The notes beneath the pieces are model-generated. The model made no database searches, was not told where the DNA came from, and saw nothing but the letters and a program-made list of their open reading frames with translations. From NCBI GenBank assembly GCA_051362555.1, contig CM120642.1, positions 29,574,001-29,638,000 on the forward strand: a stretch of DNA of 64,000 nt, in the 5' to 3' direction. The stretch comes from Lingula anatina (lineage: Eukaryota; Animalia; Brachiopoda). The translations under genes were made by a program, and so were the position numbers. Below are positions 4,144-53,597 of this stretch, piece by piece. The first letter of the stretch is position 1. Every line of letters begins with the position of its first letter.

Positions 4144-4437
4144 ATGGAGCCATCACGCAATAAACCAAGATGGCAAAGTTCACCAAACTTCAGCGTAAAC
4201 TCACTGTACAAATTCATCAGACTTTGGCTGCTGCTCCTGATGTTCAACTCTGTGGAAAATCACAACTTTAATGTCCTTTATAACCCATGTTCGCATGTTG
4301 ACGAAGTCACTGGGATGACAGAATATTTGGCATGCCTTGGTGAACCAGAGGAGTTGACAAGGACAGCTTATTATAACTTGACATTGAGTTCTCCCAATGA
4401 CACTTGCGGAGACCCCCCAGAGATATTCTGTGGTCTG
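4144..4437 (+). CDS. Laminin coding exon 1 (signal peptide, LN start)
   Basis: ATG 4144; hydrophobic LWLLLLMF; donor CTG|GTAAGT, phase 0. Confidence 0.85.
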
Positions 4438-7400: not shown

Positions 7401-10400
7401 ATTCCTAACCCCCACAGGTGCTACTGTAATCTCCATGCCAAGTTTTGCCAGGTCCAGAATGGCCGCACTGTGTGTGACTGTCAACACAATACCGCGGGTG
7501 ACAACTGTGAGCACTGCCTGCCACTGTACAATGATAAACCCTGGAGACCAGGTTACTATCTCCCAGTGGACACGGGGTCCCCCAACCAGTGTCAGAGTAA
7601 GTGTACATACTAGTGTTTGTTTGATGCCAGTTTGTTTACCTGACTCATTGTCATATACTAAGTACAGGTAGACATTAGAATCAGAAATGCATGTGTTCTG
7701 CTGTCCTTGCTTTCCAGGGGCGGATTTAGGGCGTCTTCTGGGTCTTCCGGAAGACTGTCAGATTTTCAAGTTTACATTGACGGGTATCCATTTTTTTCTG
7801 TCGGAAGATGGTCAAAAATGACGAACGGATCAACAAAGATAATTTGGAAGACTGTCAGAAAATATCTCTGAATCCGCCCCTGCTTTCTCCTAGCACATGT
7901 CAGCAGGAGTGATATGATACCATGATCAATGCATCATATGTGCTGGGTATTCAGATAGTGCTGTCATATGCCATTCAGAACTGAATGATATCTCCCTAAG
8001 CTGGCTGAATTATTCAAAAGCTTTCCTACCCGTATTTTTAACATGAAATGCATGTCAACACACTGTGACACATAAAACACACAGCTTATGTGTATTGAAA
8101 ATCAATAGATTGCTGTGTGATCTTTCTGCTGTGGTATTAATCATGAGTTAAGGGCGGGGTTCTTAACGCAAATTGTGGCCACCAATATGCATTAAATTGT
8201 TTAATAAAAAAGATTACTGTATGTGTGTCATTTTTTGACATTTCATTATCAATTTGATGAAGATCATTTATGAAGTTATTTGAATGTCTTTAAAAGATAA
8301 ACATGGTGATATGAAGACATTGTGTTACTGTATAAAAAACAACATTGCTGCTGGTCTTGCATAACCCCAAAGTGGATAATTAATTTTGTAAAAAGTATAA
8401 ACTGAAAGGTTTATATTGAGACTTAAAAGTGCTAACTTCTATTATTAAGCCCCAGCTTGGAGAATTGACATATTTTTAACCAATATCTGCTGGATGTAAC
8501 TTTCAAAATTTTGAGCACTTGTAAAAACTAAATACTAGAGGCTGAACCATTATATTATTCACCGTCTATCATTTACTTTATATGAAATCAAATCTGCAGT
8601 TATGATCAGTTATTGCTGTTTGTGTGTAAACTGAAGACTCGTTTATGGAAACACATGTTGGAGCATTCAATGTGGCAGTTGTTTCCATTACAAGTATTTG
8701 TCATTTGCATATTATATTGAGTACTTAGCTGAATTATTGATGTCTCCTAACACACCTGCTGCACCAGTTAAAACATACATCAAGTCACATTTAGATTAAG
8801 ACATGAGTCAGTGATTTTGGTTCTTGCTTAGGATTCTCTTAAAGTATGTCTACTATGTATTGATTTAGCTACTTTTAATCCATGATCACTAAGGCCACAC
8901 TTTTTTATTTTTATGGATGACATCCTCTGGGTACCCCAAAATCGGTGCGAGAGGGCGAAAAAAAAAAAACAGTCCAAAAAAAAAAAAAACTGCTTAAGTA
9001 AAGGAATGCTGTCAGTACACAGCTGGAAACACAAATTTAACCACAGAAACACGTATCAAACTAACAATATGTCTTTATCCATGCTCTCAAAATATTAAAG
9101 CATTGTGAATACTTCGTAGAAATGTAAAAAAAAAGTCATGAATTGATATACTTCATATTACCAAATCTATTTAAGGTTATTTCATGCATTCATTTGGTAT
9201 AGCAATCAATAAAACAAATATCAATCAAACAGTGTGTCTTTATTTGTATTCTCAGAATATTAAAACATTTTGAACACTTCACAGAAATGTTTAAAAAATG
9301 ATGCAAAGATATGCTTAATACTACCAAATCTATTAAAGGTCATTTCAGACGATGCCATTTTGTCAACTTCAACTCACACAAAGCAGCTAAACTGTCAGGT
9401 GGCCTGTCCGACCTTCAGCCCACCAAATACCTCGACGCCCTTGTCGACCCTTTTTTCGCTACAGAAAACCTGGTATTAATGTGCTGCTTTATACAGAATG
9501 TCACAGAAATGTTTCGGCCGCCGCCAGCCTTTCGCACAATTGTAAAAAGGTGATATCTCCATGCCCAATATCAATGGCATACCAATCCAAAACGATGGCT
9601 CCCATTCTCTTTATGACTTTTATTGTTGTGTAATTTGAAAGTAATCCTAGAGATGAATTTGACAGCAAAGTGGCCGCATTTCCACGTGGCGAAAATACGC
9701 ATGCGCAGAAAGCTCATTTCCTTGCAAATTCAATAACAACGTTTGCGACAACCGACTTCGTTGGGGGCTGGGGGGGGGGCTTTTTTTTTTTTTTTTTTTG
9801 GAGAACGGGCGAAAATCCATGCGCGCGCAGGATGTCATCCATAAAATTAAAAAAGTGTGGCCTAACTGTAAAAACTGCCTGTGAACAAGGCGTCAGATAT
9901 TAACTCTGTTTTGCAAGAATGTTATTGACAGTTTGGTCTCTATTCTTTGTTTTTAATTTTATGCATCATATTGCAGATTTACAAATCTTATCTTCATTTA
10001 CATAATGTAATTTCAGAAAAAAAAAACCCAGTAAATTAAATAATTGATTATAATGATAGTATTAGTAAATGTTCAATAAATATACTGTTATCATTAAATT
10101 ATTTAATACAGATGAATCACGATAAAAGATTAAAATGATATTAACCTCAATAGCTCTGTAAAGGTGGAACAGATCGTATTTTGAAATATAGGTAAAATGT
10201 TTGTATTAATTTTTTATGCATAGAAATTATGACATAGAAACAACAAATGTTTCTTGTACCTTAAAATGAGGTTGGATAAATGAATATTTCTCTTTAACTG
10301 AAGTAGAAACAAATATATTAGCATCCACAATAATTTAAAAGTCATGCTTGATTTTCTCCAGAATGCAACTGTAATGACCACGCAGACAGCTGTACGTATC

Positions 10401-11077
10401 AGGGATCAGTTGGTGGTGGCGTCTGCGACAACTGCTATCACAACACCAGGGGGCGTTACTGTCATGAGTGTCAGATGGGATATTATCGTAATTTGTCGTT
10501 GCCTATGACGAGTGTCAATGCTTGTGCAGGTAGTGTGCCAGTGCCATGGGGTGTAATTATGTAATTGTTGATGAAAAATTTTATTCTGGGCTTAACTTCA
10601 CATATGATATGATTTTTACAGACTATATTTACATAATCTTTTTGATAAAGGTGGTGAATTGTTTTCACCTGTCAATTAATTTGTCCTTTATTTTGTATTT
10701 TATTTGCCTACTACACATTTTGTTCACAATAACCCCTATACATTAAACTTCTACATGTAAAATATCTGTCCTATTTATTTTCAAATTGCTAAAATTAAGT
10801 ACCAGTTAAGATTTTTATTCATGAAAAACAAACAAACATTTATTTCATTATTTTTAGCATGCAATTGTGAGGTCCTTGGTGTCAGGGATGGAAACCTGTA
10901 TTGCCTCCAGAGTGCTAGTAATAATCAGGTGATTGGTCAGTGTTTCTGCAAGGACAGAGTGACCAGCAGGAGGTGTGACATGTGTGTAGATGAATACTAC
11001 GGGTTGTTGCTGTCAGAACAACAGGGAACATGTAAAGGTGAGAGTAAGGAAAGAAACACACACACTCTCTCATGTAT

Positions 11078-11141
<64 letters not shown>

Positions 11142-14100
11142 CCAGTGTCGTTTGGTAGCAGATCTTCCAAAAATTTAAATAGTTTATTTTAACTTGTATC
11201 TGTAATCTTGTTGTCTGAGATTATAATTCAAAAAATTATGTTGGTTTCCCTTGACATATTACAGAGAGAGACCTCTCTCTCTCTTTGCTAGCATGTGTGT
11301 GTGTGGTAAAGTAAAATTTAATTAAAATTTTTGTTGATATGCAATGTGCTTTTTGTTGATTCCACATTCCGCTTTTCACCCCCAGCCTGTGGATGTAATC
11401 AAGATGGCACAGTACTACAGAGTAATGTGTGTGAGAAGCAGCAAGGCCAGTGTCCCTGTAAGCCTAACATACATCTGAGGACATGCAGTGAATGCAGGGA
11501 TGGCTTCTACGACTTCCCAGCAGGAAGGAGTGCCGAGGTCAGTTCAAGAGATGTCAGTTTTATTGCAGGTTTTTTTTTTGTACAGTTATGGTACATACGT
11601 GTTAATATTTTAATTATTAATAGCAAAGGAATGCAATATTAGTTGAATAATTTTATCTGCTTCTTAAAGTAGTAAAAATTATTTTAAACTTATTAACACA
11701 AACATCATTTTATTTTGCATGATTCTCTTATAATGGGTTAATTTAACATAACATAACATAACATAACATAATTTTATTTCACGTCAGTTTTCCAACAAGC
11801 ACAACACTAGCCATAGCAGGCTAATATCACCGACAGAATGAAATAAATTAATGTGAAGTACTATAATAGTGATATAAAATTTAAATAAATAAATAATTTA
11901 TTTTTATATGCAGTTATTTTACCTGAGAAAATATTAAAAGTATTTAAGTGTTTAACACTATTGATTGTATAAAAGTGAGATGTTGCCTTAGAGGCTACCT
12001 GAGATTTAAAACCAGAATGCCTTTTAGGCTATACATTTGCACACAATTCACATTTCCAGTTTGACTGGGGTGTCCAGTTTTGGACCATACCTTTAAAAGT
12101 GTCCAGATCTTTACAATTTTTCATTGATACTGGCAACATATTCCATAGTTTAGCACCACTGTAGGCTAATGAATTTAATCCATAGCATTTTGTCCTGCAG
12201 TGCTTCTGAAGCAACTGATTTGAGTTCCTTAAGCTGTAAGGTACTTCTTTAACACTGAACAAATCCCACATGAAAGGTGGGGAGAGCTTATTTACTGATT
12301 TAAACACTTCAATTATTACAGCTCTATTCCTAGAAAGCTCAAGAGTAGATAACCCTGCTTTCTCTAGTAATGTACTATAACTAGACTCAAAATCATCATA
12401 CACAAACTTTAAGGCTCTGTACTGAATGCGTTCCATCTTTGCACAATCTACAGCACCACAAAAGTTCCAAGCTAAAGCACAATAGTTAAACTGTGATAAA
12501 ATAAAACATCTAAAGACTTGTAGTCTAGACATTTCATCAAGGTACTGTGAAAGTCTCTGTAACACTTTAAGTTGAGCACCTGCCTTCTTACATAGTACAC
12601 TGATATGATAATGAAAATTAAGTCTTTCATCAATATTCACACCTAATAGTTTCACATGTGGTTCTGTGGTGATATTAGCATTATCAATACTGATAGTATT
12701 TCTATCTGTAGTTTCATTTAACATAATAGCATGAAATTTAGATGGGTTAGCCTCCATCATATTGTCTCTGAACCACTTTATGGCAGTCTCTGACTCTGTA
12801 GTTAGAGTCTCTATCACCTCCTGTCTGGTTGGGTGCATAGCGACTAGAGTGTTGTCGTCAGCATAGTTGTATAACGACGCTCTGGTGATCGTTGCGTAAA
12901 TGTCATTCATGAAGACATTGAAGAGGATCGGTCCCATGATGGAACCCTGCGGGACCCCCTTTACCAGCGGTAGCCAATCACTGACATGTCCAGAGAGTTT
13001 AACCCTCTGACTGCGTGACGAAAGGTACGCCCATATCAAGGCACAACCTTTTTGCGACATGCCGTAGGCCCTGAGCTTGGCGATAATGAGCTGGTGCGGC
13101 AAACAGTCGAACGCCTTGCTCAGGTCCATTAGGATGGCTCCTGCGTGGTTGCGATTTTCCAAGGACTGCTTCCAGTCCTCGATCAAGCGAAGAAGCACAT
13201 ACTGGCAGTTGTATCCTCTCCTATAAGCGGCCATCCTGGGATCCAGGATCCGCTCTTTTCATTTTCTGCTGGTTTGACATTGGCTAGTTTGTTTTATCCC
13301 TGAGAATGTTTGAATTTAATAAAGCAATATAAGAAATAAAATACTATATAATTTACAATAGGATAAATCTTGACAAGCAAATTTCCTGTAACATTTCAAA
13401 GACAGCTTATTAGTATTGATAGAGTTCATGAATTAAATCCCCCCCCCCCCCCCTCCCCAATACTGTTACAGTAGAGAAGGCTTTCTTGACCATGTAACCA
13501 AACACTACTATTTCTCCTCCAGGACTGTCAAGACTGTGCATGTGACCCCGGAGGGTCAAGGTCACTGGTGTGTGACAAGGTCACTGGATTCTGCCAGTGT
13601 CGTCCCAATGTCGTCTCCAAGACATGTAACACTGTGGCGCCAGGCTACTTTCACCCCTATACAGATGCTATGTACTACAAGGTGTCCCGGGGAAACTGCT
13701 CTGAGGCATCTGATGTGGTATATGTGGGCAGGTTTACAGGGATGACTTTCCAGTCTTGTTTGGGGAATGCCTACATGGAGTTTGGACCACTGAGTCTTGA
13801 TTCAAGGATCAGTCAGAATGAAATGTATGTACAGTATGTAAATATTTACTTTGAAAGTTGTATTTTTTCAACGGAACTTTTTGATTTCTTTTCATTTTCT
13901 GCTGGTTTGACATTGGCTAGTTTGTTTTATCCCTGAGAATGTTTGAATTTAATAAAGCAATATAAGAAATAAAATACTATATAATTTACAATAGGATAAA
14001 TCTTGACAAGCAAATTTCCTGTAACATTTCATGTGGATTGTTAATGTCCATAATGTGACTAAAAAGTAGTCTCAAAGTTTGTGATTTTATATAAAAGGTT

Positions 14101-17100
14101 GAACATTTTCACTACAGGTATGTGTACCCAGCGGTTCGGTTTTCATATGACAATGCCATTATGAATGGAGTACTGGATATCACTGTAGATGGCAGTACTG
14201 TTGGTGAGACCTGCCCCACTACAAGAGGAGCCCTGACCAGTATGGGCACTGTCTTTACGCAAGGTTAGATCAAGAGCTTATATGCTAATTATCAAGTTCT
14301 AGACACTGTTTTTGACAGGTTTTTGACAGGTTTTCTAACAATTTTATTTACAGAGTCAGTTTTGAAAAAGAAGCAACTTATTATATTTATTAGCGGACAA
14401 ATATTCTATTCAATAACTGTTGTAGCTTTAAATAGCTTTGTTCATGGACATCTAAAAGAAAATTATTTGATATTTTGATTACCAGTCATTTCTCAGCCAA
14501 ACATAAAGTTTCAATATAAATTGTGCTCACCAGAAACTAGCAATAAAAATTATTTCTGAGCTACTCAAGATGTTTTTAATTCTTTAAACAGGGACTGGCA
14601 ATGCCTGGGTGTCCATATCCCCAGTGCAGCTGGACAAGAGATGTCAGTACATCTTTACACTGAGTCTACTGGGGGAGCCTAACTCAGTTATCACCATTGA
14701 TGCTCTCCTCTTGTTGCCAGCCTTGGAGTACACAGACGCTTTCATCCAAGCAGGTATTTCAGACAATTTGCAATGGTTAAAATATTCTTCCTTTGAAGAT
14801 TGCCTCCTTTTTAAGGGTAAAACAGATTTTAGCAAATTGTCTTATTTTATGAAATGTGCAAACACTGGGAGGTATAAGTTGTCCTTGTGTATTTTTCTCT
14901 GTTTTTATTCCCGTTTTTGTTATGGAGATATATTAGATAAATGGGGAGTTTTATTTGTGCTCTTACTCCTGTCTTGGTAACAGATTATTTAAAGAGTTTA
15001 ATTTTTATCTCTGTTTGCCTGTATTGTATGAATAACTGAATATCAGATGTGTTTTCACTTTGAATTGCGTTTCAGATATAGCCACGCAACTCCAGTACAG
15101 AGATTGTGTCCAGCAGATTGCCAAACTAAACACCAAACAGCAGGCTGTCTCCAGGTTACTATGCCAACAGATGGCCTTCTCTGTCATGGCACAGCTCTAC
15201 AATGGGACTATGGGTAATTATTTACATTTATTTTAAAGAAAATAATGCTGACAAATTAAATAAATAATTTAAAATTTTTTAATGATCATAAAATGTGTCA
15301 TTTGCAAAAGTTTTCAGTTGGCTTTTCCATACAGATTTTTCAATTGAGCCAGTGTTGAAATTTTAAAGTCAGTGTCACATTTGAATTTCAACTTGGAAAC
15401 ATGCATTTAAGTATTTTTTAAAGAAAAAATTTATAATATATTAACAAAACGAGAGGCATTTTTATGTACAGACACAGATGTGTCTGTACATATAGCCATC
15501 ATCTGCGTCTGTCGTCGCCGTCGTCGCCGTCGTGCACTTTTACCGATAACACGATAAGTGGAAAACCATTTTACCTTTTGACTTGAAACTTGCAGAACTG
15601 ATGAATATTCATAATACGCAGGTCAAGTTCGAAAATCAGCATGATCGGGTCACTTTAAGGGAATTTATGCAGTTTTTTCACTTTTTTCAGCATATATGCA
15701 GCACCGATAACACGATAAGTGGAAAACCATTTTACCTTTTGACTTGAAACTTACAGAACTGATGAATATTCATAATACGCAGGTCAAGTTCGAAAATCAG
15801 CATGATCGGGTCACTTTTAGGGAATTTATGCTGTTTTTTCACTTTTTTCAGCATATATGCAGCACCGATAACACGATAAGTGGAAAACCATTTTACCTTT
15901 TGACTTGAAACTTACAGAACTGATGAATATTCATAATACGCAGGTCAAGTTCGAAAATCAGCATGATTGGGCTATTTTGAGGGAATTTATGCTGTTTTTT
16001 CACTATTTTCAATATAAATGCAACACTGATAACACAATATAAGAAAAACGGATTGGCCAATTGTAATTATACTCACAGGAGTGGTCAATCTTACTAAAAC
16101 GCAAGTTGAGTTCGAAAATCAGCATAATCGGGCCATTATTTTAGAAGTTATACTGTTTTTTTCACATTTCCTCAGATTCAATTCTTAAGCATGTTAACAG
16201 TCTCATTATTTAACTAATAAGATGCCTAAAAGTGTTTGTTTGATATTTCCTGCATCTTTACAACATTGTTAGTTGATTATGTAAAAAACATGGTAAACTT
16301 GTTATCATGTATTGTGTAATAAAGTGTCAAAAATGGAAATAAACTCATATCATTGCAGTTTGTCAGATTCAATCATCCACTATGTTCAGAATCTCAGAAT
16401 GGAGGAAATTGGACATTTAACACTGTTCTATTGATACTTTTCCCATCTCATCAATTTTTTTAGTTGGTCATATAAAAATGGCAGTAAAATGTTTATTTTG
16501 TTTTATGTTAAAAAAGTGTTAAAAATGGAAATAAACCCATTTCAGAACAGTGCTGTCTTGTTTACATTTTGGCATTTTCAAGGTGTGACTTTGAAGTTCC
16601 ATGGGCCTGAAGACCTTTGCTAGTCACATTTTCTGAATATCTGTGATACTAATATTTTATTATTAAAAATTGATGGTTATTATGCTGTTAAACATTATGT
16701 AATATTGCATCAAAATTTGAAGAAACCCCTATTTTGGGCACTGCTCCCATGATGACCATTTAAGGAAAATCATGTCACTTACTGTTCTCAAACTTACAGG
16801 AAAGAAACATGGGACTAAAATACAGCTTCAGTAGGCAATGCAGTCTGTTTGGTAATTTTTTCTGGCAGTTAAACAGTTTTTTGTGAAAATTTAATTTTTC
16901 ACATATTGGCATTTTCAAGGTGTGACTTTGAAGTTCTATGATCCTGAAGACCTTTGCTTGTCACGTTTTCTGAATGTCCATGTTACTAATATTCTATTAT
17001 TAAAAATTGATGGTCATAATGCTGTTAAACATTATGTAATGTTACATTAAAATTTGAAGAAACCCCTATTTTGGGCACTGCTTCCATGATGACCATTTAA

Positions 17101-17525
17101 GGAAAATCATGTCACTTTCTGTTCTCAAACTTACAGGAAAGAAACATGGGACTAAAATACAGCTTCAGTAGGCAATGCAGTCTGTTTGGTAATTTTTTCT
17201 GGCAGTTAAATAGTTTTTTGTGAAAATTTAATTTTTCACATATTGGCATTTTCAAGGTGTGACTCTGAAGTTCTATGATCCTGAAGACCTTTGCTTGTCA
17301 CGTTTTCTGAATGTCCATGTTACTAATATTCTATTATTAAAAATTGATGGTCATAATGCTGTTAAACATTATGTAATGTTACATTAAAATTTGAAGAAAC
17401 CCCTATTTTGGGCACTGCTTCCATGATGACCATTTAAGGAAAATCATGTCACTTTCTGTTCTCAAACTTACAGGAAAGAAACATGGGACTAAAATACAGC
17501 TTCAGTAGGCAATGCAGTCTGTTTG

Positions 17526-17569
<44 letters not shown>

Positions 17570-20500
17570 GCAGTTAAACAGTTTTTTGTGAAAATTTAAT
17601 TTTTCACATATTGGCATTTTCAAGGTGTGACTTTAAAGTTCCATGATCTTGAAGACTTTTGCTTGTCACATTTTCTGAATGTCCATGTTACTAATATTTT
17701 ATTAATAACATTTGATTGTCATTATGCTGTTTAACATTATTTAATGTTGTATCAAAATTTGAAGAAATCCCTATTTTGGGCACTGCTCCTATGATGACCA
17801 TTTAAGGGAAATCATGTCACTTACTGTTCTCAAACTTATAGGAAAGAAACATTGGACTAAAATACAGCTTCAATAGGCAACGCAGTCTGTTTGGTAAATT
17901 TTTCTGGCAATTTTTTTGTGAAAATTTAATTTTTCACTTATTTGCATCTTTATTTTCTGTTCTTTGTCTGTACATCTGACAGCTTTGCTGCCTTGTTTTA
18001 GTTTATTGTAAAAGTAGGCAATCCTGAATTTTTTTCTTACAGCCTGCGACTGTGATTCTACTGGTACAGTAGAGAACAGCGTCTGTGCCTCCTATGGTGG
18101 ACAGTGCCAGTGTAAACCTGGGGTGTTTGGTTTAAGATGTGATGTCTGTGCACCTGGCTACTACAACTTCTCAGTCAATGGATGTACAGGTAAGGACAGG
18201 TGTTTACTGTGGGAGGGGATGTCTGGAGGTATGTTTTATGGATGTACAGGTAAAGACAGGTGTTTACCTTAGGGTATATATGATGTCTACTCAGTCACTA
18301 CATTATTTTTGAGTTGCATCTGAAGCAAAATTGACTTGGTAAGCACTGATATCTAATTCCGTCATTTTTTTTTAAAGTGAGACATTTGGCCTTGGTTGGT
18401 GCTACTCCTGGGATGATTCAATGTTGTGTCCTGGGCATTTGAAATATTTGCTGGTATCATTGCAATATGCTTATCTGTGTATACATTGATGTTGTGTTTC
18501 TAGTATGTAAGATTGATGATGAACCTGTTTTTCCCAGATGAATTGTATCTGTGTATAGTCAAATTGGACATACATGTATATAGATTTATGTTAAATATTT
18601 ATATTTATTTGAGGTAGAGGGTTATATTCATGTGTCCTGGGCCTCATGCTTACCTTAATACTCCACAAATTTATAATTTATAAGTAAACGTTGATTTTTG
18701 TTTTTACTGCACAGTTACTATGGGAGTGTTATTGTAGGAGGAAGTGGTGAAGCTGGAAAACAATATCTTTAGTGAACTGTTCAGTATTGTTGTATGAATT
18801 ATTTCTGAAATTTTAAACAAGTAAAAGTGCTTTCTGTAAGACCTATATTTCTACAGAAAATTGATCAAGGTACCGGTATTTAAAAAAAATGTCTGACATA
18901 ATGTTATGAAATACCAACTGAAAAAATACTTTAACTTTTTCAAAACTCTTTTTGAAAAATTTTGGTCTTAGTCAAGTCAGCATAATAAAAATCTGTATGG
19001 AAAAGCCAACTGAAAACTTTTGCAAATGACACATTTTATGATCATTAAAAAATTTTAAATTATTTATTTAATTTGTCAGCATTATTTTCTTTAAAATAAA
19101 TGTAAATAATTACCCATAGTCCCATTGTAGAGCTGTGCCATGACAGAGAAGGCCATCTGTTGGCATAGTAACCTGGAGACAGCCTGCTGTTTGGTGTTTA
19201 GTTTGGCAATCTGCTGGACACAATCTCTGTACTGGAGTTGCGTGGCTATATCTGAAACGCAATTCAAAGTGAAAACACATCTGATATTCAGTTATTCATA
19301 CAATACAGGCAAACAGAGATAAAAATTAAACTCTTTAAATAATCTGTTACCAAGACAGGAGTAAGAGCACAAATAAAACTCCCCATTTATCTAATATATC
19401 TCCATAACAAAAACGGGAATAAAAACAGAGAAAAATACACAAGGACAACTTATACCTCCCAGTGTTTGCACATTTCATAAAATAAGACAATTTGCTAAAA
19501 TCTGTTTTACCCTTAAAAAGGAGGCAATCTTCAAAGGAAGAATATTTTAACCATTGCAAATTGTCTGAAATACCTGCTTGGATGAAAGCGTCTGTGTACT
19601 CCAAGGCTGGCAACAAGAGGAGAGCATCAATGGTGATAACTGAGTTAGGCTCCCCCAGTAGACTCAGTGTAAAGATGTACTGACATCTCTTGTCCAGCTG
19701 CACTGGGGATATGGACACCCAGGCATTGCCAGTCCCTGTTTAAAGAATTAAAAACATCTTGAGTAGCTCAGAAATAATTTTTATTGCTAGTTTCTGGTGA
19801 GCACAATTTATATTGAAACTGATGAATTGTATCTGTGTATAGTCAAATTGGACATACATGTATATAGATTTATGTTAAATATTTATATTTATTTGAGGTA
19901 GAGGGTTATATTCATGTGTCCTGGGCCTCATGCTTACCTTAATACTCCACAAATTTATAATTTATAAGTAAACGTTGATTTTTGTTTTTACTGCACAGTT
20001 ACTATGGGAGTGTTATTGTAGGAGGAAGTGGTGAAGCTGGAAAACAATATCTTTAGTGAACTGTTCAGTATTGTTGTATGAATTATTTCTGAAATTTTAA
20101 ACAAGTAAAAGTGCTTTCTGTAAGACCTATATTTCTACAGAAAATTGATCAAGGTACCGGTATTTAAAAAAAATGTCTGACATAATGTTATGAAATACCA
20201 ACTGAAAAAATACTTTAACTTTTTCAAAACTCTTTTTGAAAAATTTTGGTCTTAGTCAAGTCAGCATAATAAATGTTCATGTAATTACAAAATATGAACA
20301 CTGATATGAATAATAATATGAAAGTTTTATCAAAAAGCATGCAGCCAAGGACCATGGTTTGTAACCTATAAAGTAAGGCAGCTTTTAGCATTAGAGGCCA
20401 GCACTCCTTCCGACCTCGGGTCTCCAAGTTCCACTATTTCCCCCTCTGACCCTGCTTACACTAGTATCATAGCTGTTATCACTACTGCTGCTGTCTTGGT

Positions 20501-23500
20501 GGCCATTTGTATTTGTGCTGGGATATACAATAATGGTGTCTTTCATAGAATGATGGATTGTTTGTGCCACTGGGAATGGAGGCGCCACTGCTGCCCATGT
20601 TGTGTGCGCAAACGTCTTAGTCCTTTGAGTGTTTTGAGGAGTCTTCCTCAGCCAAATGGCAGCAGCTTCAGAGAGCAAGACAGGACACAGGTGTCAATGG
20701 GAGATAGTTGGGGAGAGGCTGATGATGAGGAGGAGGAAGTTTTAGACTTGAGAAATGTTGCTGAAGACATAAAAGATAAGGATCCAGAAATGGTTGAAGT
20801 ACGCACCAGCTCTTCATCCCTAGAGAGATATCTGGTGACATCTGGGACAACTTACTTTACTGAAAATGAAATAAACAGAAACGATAATGAAAACAGAGAT
20901 TGGAATGGTCACTTTGAGGGCGCCAGGCTTCAGTTTTCTACCCTGTCATCTGCCGAGGAGAGAAGGGTTGACCACCACCCCCAGAGTGAAAGAATGAATT
21001 GGACCAAGACTAAAAGTTTATCAGAAACAGGAAGAAAGAGGAGGCAGCTTCCAGAGATCTCCAGAATGGTCCCATTACCATTGCAAGAAAAGTCAAAGGA
21101 CACACTGGCTGTTCCAGCACTTGCTTACCCCCCTGGCAGAAGGTGGAATCCCAGAACGAGAATCAAAACAATATCCCGATCAGACGATGAAGAGTGCAGG
21201 TCAGAGAAAGAATTTCACCAGACTCAGAGCGATGAGTATGTGTCTTCCACAGGCTACGATTCTAGTATCAGTATGGACACTCTAAGTAGGAGTTGGGGCG
21301 ATAGGTCGGAGGAGGAGACGCAGTATAAGAGCTCAGGTGATGGTCTAGCACAAGCTCTTTCCACCTCCAGTGAGACTTATGAGCCTCGTTCTCATCCTGG
21401 AGGAGATATCAGATCTCACCTCAGCAAAAAAGAGAGGTTAACTAGGAAACCAAATATGTTAATAGTGCAGAGAAATGACCTTGGGTCATCCAAACAAGAA
21501 AGTAAAAATAAGCCAGGAGAGAGGTACCGCCATCAGCAGAACCACCAAGCCAAGATTAAAAGAAGATTTTCAGAGCCGTTAAAGAAGGATCAGTTTACTT
21601 ACAGTACCAGAGCTGGAAGAAGATCTTCAGATGGAAATAAACCATCGAAGAAACAATCTAGCAATGGCTATAAGTCACAACAATTTTCAAAAAGTGGTCG
21701 AGTCCTAGATAAAGATGAGTTGATCCCACATGATAAACTGGACAGTGTAGACAAACATGAGGATGTGGGGAATGCTAGTGAATCTGACTCTTATAATTCT
21801 GATGATTCTTATATTTAGGAACAATGGTCAGATCCAAATGCAGATGGAATGGAAGAAGACCTATTTTTTCTTTTGATAAAAGAAATATAATTTATCTTTT
21901 ACAATAAACAGACTGAGTGTGACTTAAACAGTATTTATGTAGAATATTTAAAAAAATTATACAAAAGATACAAGATTTTTTTAAAGACACATGAGGTTAT
22001 TTGCTAAAATATTTTCTGACATCGGAATTTCTCCTTTACTTTGAATATTCATGTTACGTTAAATGGCATATGAATGATAACTATAGCATAGAATAAATAA
22101 TTAAATTAAAATTTTACCTTGTTAGTTCTCAGGAAAATTCATCAGAACTGCTGCTTTTGGATATGCCTGTAGCATCTTATCAAATGTACATTTATATATT
22201 AAAGGACTGGCTTTATTTGATGTGCAAAATATGTCTGTATGACATGTACTAGTACACACATTTTTGTTATCATTTTCATCCTGTTTTTGGAGAGGTCAGT
22301 TTCAGGAAGGATTTATTAGTTGACAACTTTTGATGTGTTACTTAACCAAGTAAAGTCTAGCCCTTGTATATATTATACTACACTACAATACTTCTTGGAT
22401 CCCTGTTTCATACTGGGTAGCATACAGCCTGGCTGTTGTATGAGGGGTTGAAAGCTTAGCATATGTTCTACAATATCTTTCACTGCCAGCTGAACCACTT
22501 CACCCATGCTTTAACCCCTAAGTGCTGAGTGCCAAGTTGGAAGACAGCAGGTACAATTAACGAAAGAATGGTATGTCCTTAGAAAGAGTCAAACTCACGG
22601 CCTCCTACTGCAGAGATGGACACTCTAACCACAAGGCCATCTGGATGGTATAAGCCGAATTTACAAAGCTCTGCTGTGGGTGAGAGTGGGGGTCATATTT
22701 ATCCTGCTTGCTTCCTATTCTACTTGATGATAACCTGAAATTGTTCAGTGTTTATGTTAGTTTTCTAATGGTTTTCTTAGTAACCATTGGTCAGTTGTCT
22801 TCATGTATTCAGGTTAGTGCCTGGTTTGACATATTTCATTAATTTTTTTTTTCTTTTTTGATATTTGGGAGCAGGGTCAGGTATCATTGTTTTTCACCAG
22901 CTGCTTTATTTGTAAAAATGGGAGACTTTTAGTTATTTGTAAAATGATTCTTTGCATGTAAAAATGTTATTGTAGGGTTTGTTTAACTTAATAATATGAT
23001 GGGATAGCAAAGTAAAAAGAAAAAAGAAAAATAATCAGTAGTATTAAATGGCATTCTATATTATGTATAAAACATTAATAAGACATTACCAAAAATGTTA
23101 TTTCTGAAATCAAGATATGGCAATGGAAGCATGGTGATTCTCTTTAGAGTCAAATTTTACCTCATTTTGTATCTTGTGACCTCTTCGGCATACCCAGTAT
23201 ATATATCCTTGATGATGTGGCATTGATGGTGGTATGGAGTATGTTTTATGTATGGGAATATAGAGTCATGTTGTGTAGCCATTGGCATTTGATTCCAATT
23301 ACATTTCCTGGCATCAGTAAGATTGAAACCCAATAGTTCCCACACCCCTTTTTTCTGATGTATATATGTTAAGGAACTTTATATAAGAGAGCCATTCCTC
23401 TTCATTTGAGAATATACATGTATAGGATGGTAAGTTCCTCAAAGGGATATTTTAAAAAATCAGCCATTTTTTTCTTCCATAAATAATTAATTGTACTTTT

Positions 23501-26500
23501 TCATGTTAACATGTGCATGTGTATGAGAATGTACATGAAATAAAAACTTTACATTTGATCAATACCATTTTATCTATAACTATCTCAGATGGGGTCATGC
23601 TATTAGCGGGAGTTTCAAGACATCCAATTTCATGTGTGAACATGCAGGTTTGTGTGCTCAAAATGTGTTCCTTATTTACATTATAATAGTCAGGAAAACT
23701 TGTGGTGTTTAGCCCCACTAGTGAACTCTATTCATTATAACATGTCTTCTTGTGTATTTCCAGCTTGTAATTGCCCAGTGCTAGGGTCAGAGAGTCCAGT
23801 GTGTGACACTATCACTGGTCAGTGTCCATGCCGGGTGGGAGTGGCCAGAGCTGGACAGCTGGACAACACTGGACAGGTAAGGGAGAGAACACTTGATCTA
23901 TAAGTTATGTAAATTTATCTGATAAGTTTGTGTAGTTGAATACTAAAGGTTTGTCATTTTGATGATTTAAAAAACGAAAGTGTGGATTTTTGTTTGATAT
24001 TTGCATGAGAAATCCAATTAGGCTAAGCTTCTGTCTTTATTGACAAAGTAGTGGTGTTTTAAAGTAATTTTTCAGCATTGATTAATTTAGAAATTGGTAA
24101 TATATTGGATATACATGTATATTATATATTTATTTTAGACAAATGGAAACCATCCCATTGTTCAATTTTAACTCAAACATCCAACTTGAAAAATTCACAC
24201 CATCTTCCAGAAGACCCAGAAGACCGCCTCCATCCCTCCTCCATATAATTACAATTATAGTACATTCTCTGTTCCAGGTTGGCCAGCTCCAGTGTACGTC
24301 CTGTCTGTCAAACTATTACGGCTACAGCTCAGGACAGGGGTGCACGGCGTGTCTCTGTGACCAGGAGGGGAGCCTGTCACCCCAGTGTGACAGTGTCACT
24401 GGGGTTTGCAGCTGTAAGGTGACAATTACTGGGGACAAGTGTGACAGGTGTCTCACTGGGTACTATAACTTCACGGCCCTGGGGTGTAGGTAGGTGATAG
24501 ACAACAAGGGATTTTCACATTGATTGATATTAATAATACTTGAGCAATTTAGTCTGCACTGGTGTTTTGAGAGCCTGCAGCTGGCCATTACATTTGGATC
24601 CTCTGCTCTTGACACTGCTGATTGGTAAATTAAAATAAACAGATCAGAATGAACACATGGACTTACTAAAGGGTGTAAAATCCCTGTAGCGTATTATATG
24701 TTAGGACCTCTCTTGTATTGCTAGTTATATTGCACCATGAAAAGGGACATTTTAATATAGAAGATTTAATTTGCACACTGATCTTGGTAAATTAATAAAC
24801 AAATACCAGTCTGTAACAAAATTGTCAGTTCTATTTTAAGTGTGTGGTTGGCTCAGATATAACTTAGAATTAAAATGTCTAAGAGAACTGTTCCTATTAC
24901 AGTGATTTGACGCAGTAGTATTGTGTGAAATTGCTCATTTTTATGGAACAAAATTACAACAAATCATTATGTTAAATATTGTAATGTTGATTAAGCCTGG
25001 AACAAAGCTTGCATTCATTCAGAGATGTGGTGCACCATTAAGTATTTTTTTTTTTGACCTCTAGTTTAAATTTGTGGTCAATCCAGATATTAATTAAAAT
25101 TTAGATGTCTAAGAGCACTATGCATATTACAGCAATTTGAAAGAGTAGTGTTATGTGAAATTGCTCACTTTCATGGAACAAAATGACATCGAATCATTAT
25201 GTTCATTGTTGTTGATTAAGCCTGGAACAAAGCTTGCATTCATTCAGAAACATGGTACACGTTAAAGTATTTGTGACACTATTCAACTGTACAACCCATT
25301 GTTTCATTCAAAATCTTTCAGGCCCTGCAATTGTAACCCAGACGGCTCCCTAGACATCAACTGCAACCAGACGACTGGACTTTGTCCCTGCAAATCTAAT
25401 GTAGATGGCGCCAAGTGTGACTCCTGTGTGGCTGGCACCTTCAACCTGGCCCAGACTAACCCCGACGGATGTCAGCCATGTTTCTGCTTTGAGCATGGAA
25501 CGCAGTGCACCTCAGCACAGGGCTATGTGGCCAGCTCATTGTACACAGATAGGTAATGATGACTGACAAAAATAGCAGTACTGTGATAATCTGTGAATAC
25601 TACAGGAAACTGGTATTAAGATTATGCCCTTGGAGGAGTTTCAAACAGCCAAAAACAGTGTTCTGAAATTCTGGCTAAATTATTAAACAACACAAAATGC
25701 ATAAGTTTTTAGGCTACAAAGATGATTGATTTTAGCATGCTGTTGAGTAGAAGATTGCTATTTGTTGACAGTACTTGGCATATACAATATTTTTATTATA
25801 GTGTCCAGTCTTGGCTCCTTGGCACTAATGAATACTCCACTCACAGAAGGGCACCTGCTGAGTTACTAGGGAACAGGTTCACTTCATACGGCCAGCTGTT
25901 ATCTCTGTACATGAGACCCAGGACTGGCACTGTGTTCTTGAACGGAGAGCGTGCTGTAGTGATGTCAGGCGGAGGTAATGTGAATTCATTGACTAAAAGT
26001 AGAAGATATTATAGCATGATTTCATCCACAGCATAGTGTTTTCTTGCTTTATTTCTTCACATCCGATGAAAAAAAACATGCACTTTCACCTTGAATATCA
26101 CTTCTAGAACTCTCTTGAACTCAGTTGCTAGAAAGGGGGTGGCAAATGTTATAATTGGATAATGACCACATTTTTTATCTTGATGCATAATGCAGAAGTG
26201 AGGATTTCAGAGGTGAATAATGTTTCACATTTGAGAAGGAAAACATACTGAGTCTTTTAGATATTTCGGTCATTATTAGCTTAAAGTTTTTACTTTGTTT
26301 CTTTTGCCACACTAAAAACTTTATAAAAACTCAATATCAGTAAAATATCAGTAACACCGATTTCTACTTTTTTTTTATCCAGGAGTGACCGTGTTCTATG
26401 ACCCTGGAGATGTGACCCTCTCCACCACACACACCACCCAGGTGGAGGTTCTACTGCATGAACAATACTGGAGACTGGCAGTTGACACCAGGAAGAGCCC

Positions 26501-28254
26501 CTCACCACGCCAGTTTTATGGTAAGATCCTAAACAGATATGTAACGATATGCAACAAAAAGATTAATCTTCAGGTTTAGTAAGTAAAATTAAGATAGCAC
26601 AATGCATATGGTCTGAATCAAAAAGGAAAAAAAAAATTTTTGAAAAATAACATTTGTTGTTAATTTGTTATCTAAGCATAAGTGTTATAAAATCTATAAA
26701 AACTGTTTTTAAGTGTTGACAAGTTATCAAGTTGTTGCATGAAAATCAGATTTTTATAACAACAGCAACATGCTGATTTAAATTTTTTCTTAATTCTAGG
26801 TGTTCTGGTAGACCTCCAGGCAGTGTACATCAAGTCAATCTACAGCGGGACATTGGTGGACACACTTAATGTTACCTTGGTTACAGCAGAGCCTGCATCA
26901 ACAATAGATGGCAGTGCTGTCCCTGTCAGCCACGTGGAAAATTGCACTTGTGGATCTTTTACGTCAGGTAAATCATATTGTTGAATCACATGTGTATGCC
27001 GAGTTTGATATTTATTCTTTTTGGAATGAACAGTTGTTGCACAAGCTGTTTTTCACTATGAAACTGTGCATAAGTATTATATTTAAGTTTAATGAAAGAA
27101 GAAAATGCATTATCTTTGAATAACAACTATTTGAATTTAACTTTGTGGTATGTTGTGAATTCTGCTTTTAGTGAATATGCATATTTTTTTTACATTGCTG
27201 ATAATATGTGGCGTAAGGATAATGCATCTTTAAGACTTAGTCTAATCTATTCACTTAATTAATAGGTTCCTTAGTTGAAATATAAGGATGATTTTAATCT
27301 CTTTTCCTCAGGCCTTTCTTGTGAAACATGTCAGGCAGGACATCGGCGCATTGTAAACAGAAGCGACCCGTATAGTCCTTGCCAGCCATGTGAGTGCAAC
27401 GGGAGAACAGAGACGGTTGTCCCTGAATGTGACGCAGCCACTGGGGTCTGTCTCAACTGTCGCAATGGGACGATGGGCTCTGACTGTTCAGGGTGTGCTG
27501 CCAATGTGATAGGGGCCAACTGCGACCAGTGTAGCTTTGGATTTTGGGGACTTGGAAGAGATGGATGTAGAGGTAAAACATATTTTTTTCTTTCTTTTTT
27601 AAAATTTTATACTGTAATTAATTATAACCATGTTTTTTGCCTTGGTTTGAGAATGCCACTGGTATAGATGATAATACACTGTTTATTGTATGAATTTTAC
27701 TTCTGAAGTACATAATTATTCATTTTATGAATACAGGCTTTCCAGAAGTATAACTCTCAGAATACATAGATAATACCATTTATGAAGTTATTTATAATAG
27801 GAAAACACAGTATAATTAACGGGATTGATTGATAAAAAAAAAAAAAAAACATGCACAGAATATTCTGGAATGCTAAGAGTTGACAAAATTGTGTTTATAC
27901 ATCCTATAAGACAATGAATCTGGTGACCAGTGCTCGAGGGGATTATCTTCAGATTATCTGCATACTAATTAAGAAATTAGCAAAAAAAGGCTGCACCTAA
28001 CTTTTTATATAAAAATGTCACTCTTCAATCATAAACACCATATTTTCACTGTCGTCACTGATTTCATTTCTGATTGTTGTAGCATGTGAGTGCAGCCCAG
28101 TTGGAGCAAATGGAGACTTCTGTCAGCTCCAGTCAGGCCAGTGTGACTGTAAGGCCAATGTGATAGGGAGGCAATGTGATACATGTGCTGATAACTATGG
28201 TGACCTGACTTCTGCAGGGTGTACTGGTTAGTAGTGCTCACATATGTGTGCATG

Positions 28255-28317
<63 letters not shown>

Positions 28318-31300
28318 TTTGCAAAATACTGAACTGCCAACAAATTATTACATTATGCACATAAATATTGAAGGATTGATATTCATGAATGTTGTTAGTT
28401 AACCTATATATAGTATTGTAAATCACAGTGAATTATAACATTATTTATATAAAAGTGTCTTGACATTTACTATATCACTCCGCTGCAAAGTTGATACTTT
28501 CATTGAAATAAAACATCCTATTTTAAAACCATCATATTTTCTTCTCTTTCAGTCTGCGATGAATGTTACAGTCTGGTGACCCCAGAGGTAGACCTCCTAC
28601 GCCAGCTGCAGGTCAACCTGACCCAGTATGTGACCTACTTACAGAGTCAGGACTGGAATACCGAGCTGGGGACGCCATTCACTGTGAGGCTGAATGAAAC
28701 TCTGCTCAGAATGGACCAGCTCAAGGACTATGTAAGTATAATATCATGGACTGTCAAGTTACAACAGACATTGTAAAGAATTTAGTGTTACAGAAAAAAT
28801 TTTTTTGGTAAAATATACAGTATTTGTTAATTGTGAACTGCTTACTAATTTTATCTGTTTGATTTAATTAAGGTTGTTTATTAAAACACATGAAAAGAGA
28901 AAAATAAAATATGCTTTACATGTGAGTTTCTCTCTAGACAGTAGATGTGGAGTAATTTATGGAATTTTTTTCTAAAGATACAAAATTTAATTACTAATAA
29001 ATATTCACACACAATTTCTTTGAGGCATAGGTGTCATATTTAAGACACAATATGCCTCTTGAAACCAACTTTGATTTTGATTTTATACTATTTTATAGTT
29101 CTCTATCAATCATACATTTATCCTTTCATTAAAAACATTGCATCCACCAACAATAAGAGAAAGTAAGTATTAAGTGCTGTGTATTCTCTTCAAGCTAACA
29201 CAAGCTGCAGCAGTAGAAACTCCTGTATCCACGGAGATCACCCGTCTGAATCAAACCCTGCAACATCTGATTGGTCTCCTGGAGACAGTGGTGAATGCTG
29301 GGATACAGAATGCCAATGCCACCAACGCCGCCTCTGAACTGCTGGTGGAACAGAGTCAGGTGGAAATAGACTATATCAATACAACACTGAGAGATACATA
29401 TGGGAAATTACAAGGTGATTGTTGTAATGTGTTTTTTACTTTTTTTGAATTATTACATGATGTGGCAAGCATAAGTGGTTTGCACATTTATACGTGCAAA
29501 GCAATTTAAACAGAGAAGACAAGATCTTTTCTAGCTGTCAGTTTATTTATTTATTGATATCTGTCATTGCTAAATAATAATCTTCAAATACAGGTTGTTC
29601 TTGCCTGGAGGTTTCATACACCGTTACTCAATAACAATGATGAACTTCAAACTAATGTTGCTGACTAATTCTAATTTAATTTTTTTAACATACACATGGT
29701 TTTTTCACTTTTCGTCGTTATACTGTGAGTCATCTTTATTTTTACATGTATCACTTAATCATTCTCATCTATTAACTTTCATAGGATTACGTAATGTTGG
29801 TAAGTCTACTGAAAATTTTATGATTTTTAGACTAAAATATATTATTATGATATATTATATTATCACAGGTTCTATAGCCCAGGTGACTGCTGACATTGGC
29901 GCCCTGCTGTCCTCCATCCAGACAGCCCAGAGTGAGCTGAGCAGCCTGGCAAACAATGCGGTAGATGAGCTGGTGAGGACCACTACTGTTGTGGAGAAGA
30001 TGGAGGTTGATGTCACAGAGACCAGGACAAGAGCACAGGAGACACTTCAGGTATAGACACACTGGGGAACAGAGTCGCAAAAATTGTCATTTAAGTTCAA
30101 CTTTCCAGAGCAGAAAATGTCCATATTAGACATGAGCTTTTTCCGCAGAATCACGGGAATTTCTCTTTTTATGTACAGACACAGATGTGTCTGTACATAT
30201 AGCCATCATCTGCGTCTGTCGTCGCCGTCGCCGTCGCCGTCGCCGTCGTCGCCGTGCACTTTTACCGATAACACGATAAGTGGAAAACTGTTTTTTCTTT
30301 TGGCTTGAAACTTACAGAACTGATGAATATTTGTAATACGCAGGTCAAGTTCGAAAATCAGCATGATCGGGTCACTTATAGGGAATTTATGCTGTATTTT
30401 CACTTTTTTCAGCATATATGCAGCACCGATAACACGATAAGTGGAAAATCATTTTACCTTTTGGCTTGAAACTTACAGAACTGATGAATATTCATAATAC
30501 GCAGGTCAAGTTCGAAAATCAGCATGATCGGGTCATTTATAGGGAATTTATGCTGTTTTTTCACTTTTTTCAGCATATATGCAGCACCGATAACACGATA
30601 AGTGGAAAACCATTTTACCTTTTGACTTGAAACTTACAGTACTGATGAATATTCATAATACGCAGGTCAAGTTTGAAAATCAGCGTGATTGGGTCATTTT
30701 TAGTGAATTTAGGCTATTTTTTCTCTTTTTTCAGCATATATGCAGCACCGATAACACCATAAATGGAAAACCATTTTACCTTTTGGCTTGAAACTTACAA
30801 AACTGATGAATATTCAAAATACGCAGGTCAAGTTTGAAAATCAGCATGATCGGGCCATTTTTAGGGATGTTATGCTGTTTTTTCACTTCTTTCAACATAT
30901 ATGCATCGCTAATAACACAATATAAGAAAAACAGATAGGCCAATTGTCATTATACTCACAGGAGTAGTCAAACAAACTAAAACGCAGGTTAAGATCCAAA
31001 ATCAGCATAATCGGGCCATTCTTTTAGAAGTTATGCTGTTTTTTCACATTTCCTCAGATTCATTTGTTAGGCATATTAATAGTCTCATTATTGAACTAAT
31101 AAGATACGTAAAAGTGTTTGTTTGACATTTCCTGCATCTTAATAACATTGTTAGTTGATTATGTAAAAATGATGGGAAACTTGTTATTGTGTATTATGTT
31201 ATAAAGTGTCAAAAATGGAAATAAACAAATATCATTGCAGTTTGTCAGATTCAATCATCTACTATATTCATTATCTCAGAATGGAGGAAATTGGACATTT

Positions 31301-34300: not shown

Positions 34301-35886
34301 GCAGTAGCTAAATATATATTAATATAAATCATTACCATCCCTTCCAGTTGCTCCAGACCAGTCAGCAGACCCAGCAGAACAGCACAGACAGAGCCAACAG
34401 CCTCCAGGTCTTCATGAGGGTCCTGGCCAGCAGGAATGGTAACCTAGCAACCAGTGCAGAGGGCGCCAGGAGTGCCATCACCCAGGCACAGGAGGCCATG
34501 TTGCTTGCCCTGGGGAATGTGAGCCAGTACCAGGATATAGTAATGGACAGCCAGACACTGACCACCAGGGCGCAGCTACTGAAGGAGGAGGCAGAGGCGT
34601 TGAACTTTGAGGTGAGGAATCTTTATTTATTTGCATGTGTATATAAATTTATCTTGCCTCTGTTATTAGGTATTATAAAGAAATAAGTAGAATGCTATGT
34701 GTATTTTAACTTTACAAAGTTCATTTTTTTTCCTGCACATTTTTTTAAATATTGAGTTGAAGAGAGAGAAGATGTATGCAGGTTATATAAGATGAATGGA
34801 AAATTATACTTATTCAGATATGCATATTTGAGTGACACAAAATTGTAAAAAAATAACATAAAACTTTTACAACCTTTACTTATCACTAATCATATTTCAG
34901 AAAATTATTATAATATTATAACTAGAATTTACATATTCTTTTCCTGTGATGAAATTTGATTTTTTTATTAATATCAACATTGTGCTCCAGGCTAACCAGG
35001 CAACTGCCAACAACCAGACAATAGTGGCCCTGGTGAAGGAGGCGGAGCTGTACACGGCTGGCCTGACAGACAGGGTGGTCGCCCTCAGACAGCAGGCAGA
35101 GAACCTGCTGGCCCGCGCCAGGACGGCGTATAACCTGACAGCCAGTGGGAAGGCACTGGAGGGGAAGACTTTTACTGATGCACAGAGGATGCTGCAGATT
35201 ATGAGGGAGTTTGACGCTCAAGCTGCTGGTGAGTGGGAGGGGAGTGGGGGTGGGGGTGGGTGGGTGGGGGTGGGGGTGGGGGTAGAGGGGGCGTAATGTG
35301 CCTGTTAAGACTTGTTCTGAGATTTTAATGTCTGTAATAAAGAAGTGGCAAGAACCTTTTAAGTCATACCTAAAAAACAATGCTTGTAGTAAATGAAAAC
35401 TTTATTTAATTTCTCTAGTTGAAAACATAATGTTCATGTGATTCAAAGAAATTGGAAAAGTCCCTGCTGATTTTCAAGTGTGCATTTCTGTTATCTTATA
35501 GATTTAAATATTGCACTGGAATAATAAATTATTTCATTTTTGAATTTAGACTGCAATGCTGTATTTTGATTTTTGTTTCACTTTATTCATTACTGATAAA
35601 AGACTCGTGTTTCATCCTGCACTTTTTATTTTACATGGCGTACCGACTGTTTCTACCTGGATATTGTAGGTGTTTCAGCAGCGGCTAACAGGTCACTCCT
35701 AGAGGTCCAGAAGGTCAAGGCCCTCAGTGACCAGGCTATCCAGAATGCCGAGGTCCTGAGGTCATCACTCCAGCCCACACAGGCCTTTGCACAGAATGCC
35801 CGGACAACAGCAGAACAGGCTAGGAGTACAGCTCAGAGCCAGGAGCAGGTCTCTCTTTCTCTCTGCTTTTCTCTCCCCTCTCTCTC

Positions 35887-35931
<45 letters not shown>

Positions 35932-53400: not shown

Positions 53401-53597
53401 ATGGAACACACCTGTCCTTGAGCAGACCAAGATTTCATTGGTATAATGCAGTTTTACATGCCATAAGGTTTTATGTACGTACGTGGAGATCAGTTTGTCT
53501 GGTATTGATGCTTCTGACGTCTTTTGTTGGAATTATGCGGCTAGATCTTGAGGACCTAGCCATTGGGCGCGTAAGCGTCAATTCTCGACTCGTTTAG
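47476..53597 (+). CDS. 835-aa protein: helical N-terminal region, Nal1/Ssy5-type trypsin-like serine protease, C-terminal hydrophobic segment. Exons 47476-47859, 48403-49376, 52448-53597.
   Basis: Kozak ACCATGG. CAG|GTAAGT to TTTCAG|GAA (phase 0) and AG|GTAGGT to TTCCAG|A (phase 2) join three ORFs. Catalytic motifs GSLG..YALTCAHVV (His), IDIAAVKV (Asp), FAVPGDSGS (Ser); ends SVCLVLMLLTSFVGIM. Confidence 0.82.

Follow-up and report, generated by a model that had tools for sequence, protein, structure and literature searches.

An alternative last exon very probably adds a membrane-anchored form to a laminin-beta/gamma-like gene of Lingula anatina

Laminin chains are known as proteins secreted into the extracellular matrix, where receptors link them to the cell. 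The described systems closest to the locus treated here are held at the membrane or end early, and are summarized from the pertinent passages of the papers cited. Netrin-G1 and netrin-G2 are presented there as glycosylphosphatidylinositol (GPI)-anchored proteins of chordates, encoded by separate genes, with three LE modules and neither an LF domain nor a tail (PMC10084454, PMC3230378). Netrin-G has been placed within a group named laminin-beta/gamma-like, which the passages concerned handle as laminin chains, with no mention in them of a membrane form (PMC3516229). LaNt alpha31, from LAMA3, is described as a short-arm-only product that arises through polyadenylation within an intron (PMC9788559), and isoforms a and b of usherin (USH2A), an LN-LE protein, as a matrix form and a transmembrane (TM) form ending in a PDZ-binding motif (PMC2584772). 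Here we analyze 64,000 nucleotides (nt) of the brachiopod Lingula anatina (assembly GCA_051362555.1, contig CM120642.1, positions 29,574,001 to 29,638,000 of the forward strand), called the window throughout and numbered from its first letter. It contains a laminin-beta/gamma-like gene, intron 11 of which holds an open reading frame (ORF) that is very probably an alternative last exon, giving a single-pass membrane form of about 1327 amino acids (aa) beside a secreted chain of 1897 aa (Table 1). If a laminin chain carried both a long tail and an anchor in the membrane, its short arm would be coupled directly to the cytoplasm.

The host gene was modeled as 26 GT-AG exons on the plus strand (4144-36663), without internal stop, in agreement with the chain of about 1897 aa proposed by an earlier, sequence-only reading of the window. 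The long chain consists of a predicted signal peptide, an LN domain, five LE modules, an LF domain, LE modules, an L4 domain, a second set of LE modules and a coiled coil; it lacks LG domains. In Pfam, the LN exon matches Laminin_N (1.4e-49). Its top matches in PDB are netrin-G1 and netrin-G2 (E 2e-46), and those in the protein database are netrin-G1 and chains of about 1900 aa from echinoderms or amphioxus. Exon 15 matched Laminin_B at 5e-4, under the Pfam cut-off, and the single LF exon of the window tried against Pfam had no match; the LF assignment is based on alignment to orthologues carrying PF21199, and the chain aligns colinearly over its full length to P0012, a chain with both LF and L4 Pfam domains. 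Over its full length the long chain is 33-38% identical to chains of similar size (about 1900 aa) from echinoderms, molluscs and amphioxus, and over that length no database protein exceeded 38% identity to it. In a quick IQ-TREE phylogeny of 42 LN-LE regions, computed without bootstrap and with a star threshold of 95 for the Shimodaira-Hasegawa-like approximate likelihood ratio test (SH-aLRT), the LN-LE region falls inside a 33-row clade with the chains of about 1900 aa and netrin-G (SH-aLRT 94); the clade is separate from alpha, beta, gamma and netrin-4, and the position of the host gene within it is not settled. Judged by these comparisons, the host gene belongs to the laminin-beta/gamma-like group, from which netrin-G arose, and its long isoform resembles the chains of that group in its netrin-G-clade LN, its LF and L4 domains, its coiled coil and its lack of LG. 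Two further records have a netrin-G-clade LN in the same quick tree (SH-aLRT 94), each of which may be a gene-model fusion: LN-LE-EGF-TM-tyrosine-kinase-like in the hemichordate Glandiceps (P0071, XP_077982054.1) and LN-LE-HYR-FN3-TM in the sea cucumber Apostichopus (P0125, XP_071826210.1).

Intron 11 (18190-23763) contains an open frame that begins at 20322 and is closed by a stop codon at 21816-21818. Its 498 codons compare with a mean of 87 and a maximum of 150 codons for the longest ORF in shuffled versions of the intron (n = 200). The sequence-only reading had described a stalk, a TM helix, a Cys/basic patch and a charged, Ser-rich tail ending DSYI, with no ATG before the helix and AATAAA signals after the stop, and in these points it holds. 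There is one hydrophobic segment (Kyte-Doolittle hydropathy 2.69 over 19 aa; runner-up, 0.56), the first in-frame ATG (20550) lies downstream of it, the predicted 430-aa tail is 14% Ser, the C-terminus reads SDDSYI, and AATAAA occurs at 21903 and 22092. In the tail we take the Cys patch to be a putative palmitoylation site, RxxLP a putative SH3 ligand, and the S-x-I/V end a putative class I PDZ ligand. No Pfam family matched the ORF, and when 7995 candidates of 261-832 aa were scored in a homologue search with it, none reached E <= 1. The ESM feature neighbors of its first 130 aa are single-pass proteins, with scores of at most 0.87, which we treat as a lead only.

The ORF is transcribed. Reads of four of the nine species-labeled raw-read runs (X1, X4, X7 and X9) were placed on 20280-22800, with exon 11 outside that stretch, and cover the exon from about 20.34 to 21.98 kb. 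X7 (22 reads, 17 of 30 bins) and X9 (29 reads, 21 of 30 bins) tile the ORF at low depth, and X4 contributes one 99+% read pair near the helix, oriented as expected of plus-strand RNA if the library was stranded. X1 has 32 reads, a few of them near 21.2 kb; 23, at 20715-20746, are loose on both sides and were discarded as belonging to another gene. The sequence-only reading had asked for 3'-end reads near 21.9-22.1 kb. Depth in X7 and X9 is highest at 21725-21809 and declines at 21895-21979, past the AATAAA at 21903, and depth is zero at 21980-22489 in all four runs. The same RNA allowed selection to be measured, as pooled differences between other animals' RNA and the present assembly. Forty of 42 substitutions were listed, and three in the untranslated region (UTR) were set aside. 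The remaining 37 in the ORF comprise 23 synonymous and 14 nonsynonymous changes, 25 of the 37 being at third positions and none creating a stop. This corresponds to a ratio of nonsynonymous to synonymous polymorphism (pN/pS) of 0.16-0.26, with binomial p from 7e-8 to 4e-5 across values of kappa, the transition weight, from 1 to 8. All four variants in the TM helix and Cys patch are synonymous, and the one indel listed is located in the UTR. The intron-11 ORF is a transcribed coding exon under purifying selection.

Comparable forms exist among the gene models of other animals. After LN hits had been widened by a profile search, we checked 45 records at the position of the exon-11 end, some of them partial or not orthologues. 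Nine, from eight species of gastropods and annelids, diverge from the long chain exactly at the exon-11 junction and continue into a stalk, a TM helix and a tail: Patella vulgata (XP_050395646.2), P. caerulea, Haliotis rubra (XP_046546823.1), Bradybaena (BFZ05662.1), Bulinus (two records; KAH9495699.1), Biomphalaria, Capitella (ELU05178.1) and Owenia (CAH1785885.1). In P. vulgata, isoforms X1 (1927 aa) and X2 (1206 aa) share 869 identical residues and then split at the matching residue, as do isoforms X1 and X2 of H. rubra after 666. The Biomphalaria and Batillaria models traverse the extra exon and rejoin the next LE, so the extra exon sits in the same intron. The TM forms with accessions given above have one LE module after LF, a stalk, a single TM helix and a low-complexity tail of 193-424 aa; the Capitella form is 1318 aa long, with a tail of 424 aa and four RxxLP motifs. 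Six representative forms are alike at both ends only, beginning xCPxLxC and ending DE[VI][NK]GS[LI]V (6/6). Judging by these records, the membrane form is not peculiar to the present genome and is common to gastropods and annelids, which makes it an old design rather than a quirk of one genome. Of 17 records from deuterostomes, none had a TM at the junction, and five echinoderm clusters had as members long chains and short entries (<=631 aa), none of TM-form length; both are weak evidence of absence. The membrane form is already present in automatic annotations, unnamed, under ordinary laminin or hypothetical labels. Full-text literature searches aimed at a TM laminin isoform found no description, with most subscription papers outside their coverage; the membrane form is very likely real, and it is conserved and apparently undescribed. 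The suggestion, left open by the sequence-only reading, that the ORF might be untranscribed and unconserved is contradicted by the read cover, the pN/pS and the orthologue isoforms. We note that the two Bulinus truncatus TM-form records (P0192 and P0195) are near-identical and come from contigs of equal length, which suggests a local duplication or an assembly duplicate.

Where exactly the exon begins is less clear than that it exists. The AGs ahead of 20338, 20350, 20374, 20389 and 20395 are all in phase 1, matching the exon-11 donor. The sequence-only reading had chosen 20389 or 20395, pointing to the phase-1 donor, to the in-phase AGs before both sites and to a branch-like TTGTAAC motif. 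All of these are in the sequence, the motif at 20359-20365, but the acceptor itself was not confirmed. With a matrix built from the gene's 25 other acceptors (leave-one-out for these), 20389 scores -5.5, 20395 -2.6 and 20338, an AAG, -2.2. RNA, moreover, runs across the sites. We accounted for the reads assuming a length of 150 nt and one partial read per cluster. The X7 totals then fit 22 reads in three clusters, and two layouts fit the depth of the 5' cluster. In either layout one full-length read spans 20389 without being spliced, and 29 of the bases aligned in X7 lie before 20365. In one of the two layouts the partial read starts at 20336, exactly at the AG before 20338, as expected of a read spliced from an exon that itself ends in AG, which exon 11 does. 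GC content steps up from 0.20 to 0.43 at 20338, and the peptide from there, ACSQGPW, retains the Cys and the Pro of the homologues' xCPxLxC, ranking 3rd of 373 intron AGs in this respect, with 20389 ranking 110th. Two points speak against 20338: its own low score, and the lack, under the same read accounting, of any layout for the 3' cluster, where a 1-nt deletion occurs. As 20389 and 20395 are weak and RNA runs across both, 20338 is the likelier acceptor, with a chance somewhat better than even; 20389 or 20395 is possible but doubtful, and any other site a little more so. The claim of the earlier reading that one gene makes both a secreted and a type I membrane form gains expression, purifying selection and orthologue isoform pairs, and probably loses its acceptor, the product being more likely of 1327 than of 1310 aa.

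Several observations count against an alternative last exon joined to exon 11. Every phase-1 acceptor that would leave a stalk scores under all true acceptors of the gene (0.3 to 15.2), and no joint or loose end is listed near 20338-20395 among the placed reads. The match to xCPxLxC is weak (5.3 versus 27-35) and leaves one Cys unpaired. The ORF is not matched by a hidden Markov model (HMM) built from the alternative parts of the homologues. Nor does the end motif DE[VI][NK]GS[LI]V occur in the ORF, in its read-through or anywhere else in the window, 233 of 300 shuffles being as good as the best match. The orthologue support, finally, consists of gene models known from records alone. The 18-codon in-frame read-through past the stop had no match to the end motif, and an NGSMV string near 23.1 kb was taken as chance because no stop follows it. 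Compared with the spiralian TM isoforms, the window exon would share the phase-1 junction after the first post-LF LE, and it has the stalk-TM-tail order; it would start ACSQGPW (if at 20338) rather than xCPxLxC, ends SDDSYI, and has a stronger Cys patch and no detectable sequence similarity. Given the missing end motif and HMM match, two origins are left for it: an orthologous exon that has diverged strongly, or a different exon that took its place in this intron. We favor the diverged orthologue, since position, phase, topology and length agree, the Capitella form and its tail being of nearly the same size.

These difficulties can be turned into other explanations. The ORF could terminate another gene, nested in the intron on the same strand, or a transcript from an internal promoter; it would then encode a small signal-anchored protein with a short ectodomain, the TM helix, the Cys patch and the long tail, and with a start exon of its own. 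The unlisted join to exon 11 and the dissimilarity to the orthologues' TM exons would fit this, as would the presence among the ESM neighbors of adaptors with short ectodomains, for example synaptotagmin VII and LIME1 (<=0.87), and a partial read with 67 loose letters, their sequence not displayed. However, no in-frame ATG precedes the helix, the phase agrees with exon 11, and orthologues in eight species join a stalk-TM-tail exon at this very junction, which would make a look-alike in the same intron a coincidence; we regard a nested gene as improbable. It is more improbable still that we are dealing with a conserved TM exon in decay, transcribed as intronic or mispolyadenylated RNA and yielding no working membrane protein. 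Degradation or loss of both conserved motifs, the poor acceptor, the unspliced RNA across 20389, the low read depth and the perfect rearranged block just upstream could all be read as decay, but a decaying exon would not be expected to combine a pN/pS of 0.16-0.26 and 37 variants without a stop or an ORF indel with a frame of 498 codons (at most 150 in shuffles) and a sharp 3' end past AATAAA.

The isoform might also be real and differently built, with an extra small exon between exon 11 and the ORF, or with the conserved end motif on another last exon. The missing motifs at start and end suggest as much, the rearranged block could hide or displace sequence, and an out-of-frame CAG at 20345 outscores the phase-1 sites. 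Against this, no CPxxxC or DExNGS coding stretch was found on the plus strand of intron 11 outside the ORF, the end motif occurs nowhere in the window, and the reads end after the AATAAA at 21903, so that of the three we give this one the slightest chance. The alternative last exon of Table 1 remains the very probable explanation. What is directly observed is the open frame with its RNA cover, the match in phase, purifying selection, transcription that stops close to an AATAAA within the intron, and records of orthologues in which the two forms split at the junction, and because of these we consider it very likely and conserved.

In the mechanism that we propose, the exon-11 donor would either pick the weak acceptor in intron 11, with cleavage and polyadenylation near 21.9 kb yielding the membrane form, or be joined to the exon-12 acceptor, yielding the secreted chain. 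As the intron-11 acceptor is weak and competes with exon 12, the membrane form would be a minor or tissue-restricted product. Laminin trimer assembly needs the coiled coil, so the membrane form, which would have none, could not enter a laminin trimer. Instead, with its LN-5LE-LF-LE-stalk-TM-tail layout, it would hold one short arm on the cell surface, LN tip outward; the LN might bind other laminin short arms or a partner on a facing cell, and the tail might be tied to a PDZ-type scaffold. If this model is right, we lean, by a small measure, toward a cell-surface adhesion or recognition molecule with a PDZ-scaffolded tail. The main alternative, by analogy with LaNt alpha31 or netrin-4, would be that it modulates the laminin network as a shed or dominant-negative product.

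The membrane form differs from each of the systems described at the outset. Netrin-G1 and netrin-G2 have the closest solved LN and likewise present a membrane-held LN-LE tip, but their layout is LN, three LE modules and a GPI signal, whereas the window form would have LN-5LE-LF-LE, an internal TM helix and a 430-aa tail. The loop I core of netrin-G that binds the netrin-G ligand (NGL) is given as NPY, with P85 and Y86 in human NTNG1, in the passage concerned (PMC3230378). In the window LN this place reads GLRRGSAC, with RRGSA for NPY, and NPY is found in none of six aligned invertebrate orthologues; a vertebrate-type NGL interaction is therefore not expected. At the calcium site of the LN of netrin-G and laminin gamma, described as an Asp and a Thr eight residues apart (PMC3409155, in the part concerned), the window LN keeps both D and T, six apart (DADSENT). 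LaNt alpha31 is alike in being a short-arm product from intronic polyadenylation of a laminin gene, at the expense of the full chain. Its intron retention and short secreted C-terminus are unlike the window ORF, which starts 2.1 kb into the intron, would be a spliced exon, and encodes a TM helix and the long tail. Usherin is alike in having matrix and TM isoforms of an LN-LE protein, but it is not a coiled-coil laminin chain, and of its two isoforms the longer (5202 aa, FN3/LamG) carries the TM. In the window the TM would belong to the shorter isoform, where it takes the place of the trimerizing arm. The membrane form is an isoform of a laminin-beta/gamma-like gene and a member of neither netrin-G, LaNt nor usherin.

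The earlier reading had suggested that a netrin-G-like molecule was reached here by a separate route, which is plausible. Since the host gene belongs to the group from which netrin-G arose, the membrane form could also predate netrin-G, and it offers a testable intermediate between a matrix laminin and a membrane recognition molecule. As a tentative and rather doubtful extension, a spliced TM short-arm receptor may be ancient, at least as old as the mollusc-annelid split, and the forerunner of chordate netrin-G and of hemichordate and sea cucumber LN-TM receptors, existing as an isoform first and later fixed in separate genes. Capitella and Patella are suited to isoform-specific expression and knockout work.

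Table 1. Features of the laminin-beta/gamma-like gene and of its intron 11 (window coordinates)
Feature	Position	Strand	Remarks
Shared exons 1-11	4144..18189	+	Predicted signal peptide, LN (netrin-G clade), 5 LE, LF, 1 LE; 834 codons + 1 base; GT-AG model
Exon 11	18043..18189	+	Complete 8-Cys LE module after LF; phase-1 donor ACAG/GTAAGG; would serve both isoforms
Rearranged block in intron 11	18537..20273	.	Perfect 453-nt direct repeat (18537-18989, 19821-20273) around perfect 834-nt inverted copy (18987-19820)
Alternative terminal coding exon, very probable	20338..21818	+	Preferred acceptor 20338 gives a 1327-aa product; 20389 would give 1310 aa, 20395 1308 aa
Ser/Pro/Thr-rich stalk, predicted extracellular	20389..20468	+	From sequence; orthologue TM forms have a stalk of similar composition here
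Single transmembrane helix, predicted	20469..20525	+	Hydropathy 2.69
Predicted cytoplasmic tail, 430 aa	20526..21815	+	Cys/basic juxtamembrane patch at about 20556-20618, one RRQLP, the rest of low complexity with Ser and charged residues, ending in S-Y-I
3' UTR and likely intronic poly(A) site	21819..21980	+	AATAAA at 21903-21908; depth drop in RNA runs
Exons 12-26, long chain only	23764..36663	+	LE modules, L4, LE modules, coiled coil, no LG

The inverted copy in the rearranged block of intron 11 derives from 14507-15340, which holds exons 9 and 10, and overlaps by 3 nt at one joint. The block stops 64 nt short of 20338 and leaves the ORF untouched. Other animals' RNA differs by a few percent, so the 100% identity of the repeats means that the block is very young or not real, that is, either an assembly artefact or a very recent template switch. 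Short imperfect copies of exon ends lie just within introns 11 (18228-18260) and 2 (7013-7064), the former repeating the donor context, so that it could act as a decoy donor. Intron 6 holds a 409-codon reverse-transcriptase-like ORF with a YADD motif (12029-13258, minus strand), presumably of the long interspersed nuclear element (LINE) type, and adjoining it is an exact copy (13254-13398) of 13887-14031. Two blocks, related to each other and built of tandem repeats of 161 nt and 337 nt, occupy 15381-17860 in intron 10 and 30166-33114 in intron 22, probably as one family of nonautonomous elements. Outside the host gene, a 337-codon ORF at 48367-49380 (plus strand) had no Pfam match, and a 388-codon ORF at 52431-53597 (plus strand) has a weak trypsin-like peptidase match (E 0.009) and a C-terminal hydrophobic stretch. 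A single-ORF protein of about 680 aa with leucine-rich repeats, an immunoglobulin domain and a TM segment, an NGL-like layout, is encoded at 56683-58806 (plus strand); we rejected it as an NGL-like partner, as LRRC4C ranks 35th of its 58 PDB matches and it has no special likeness to LRRC4.

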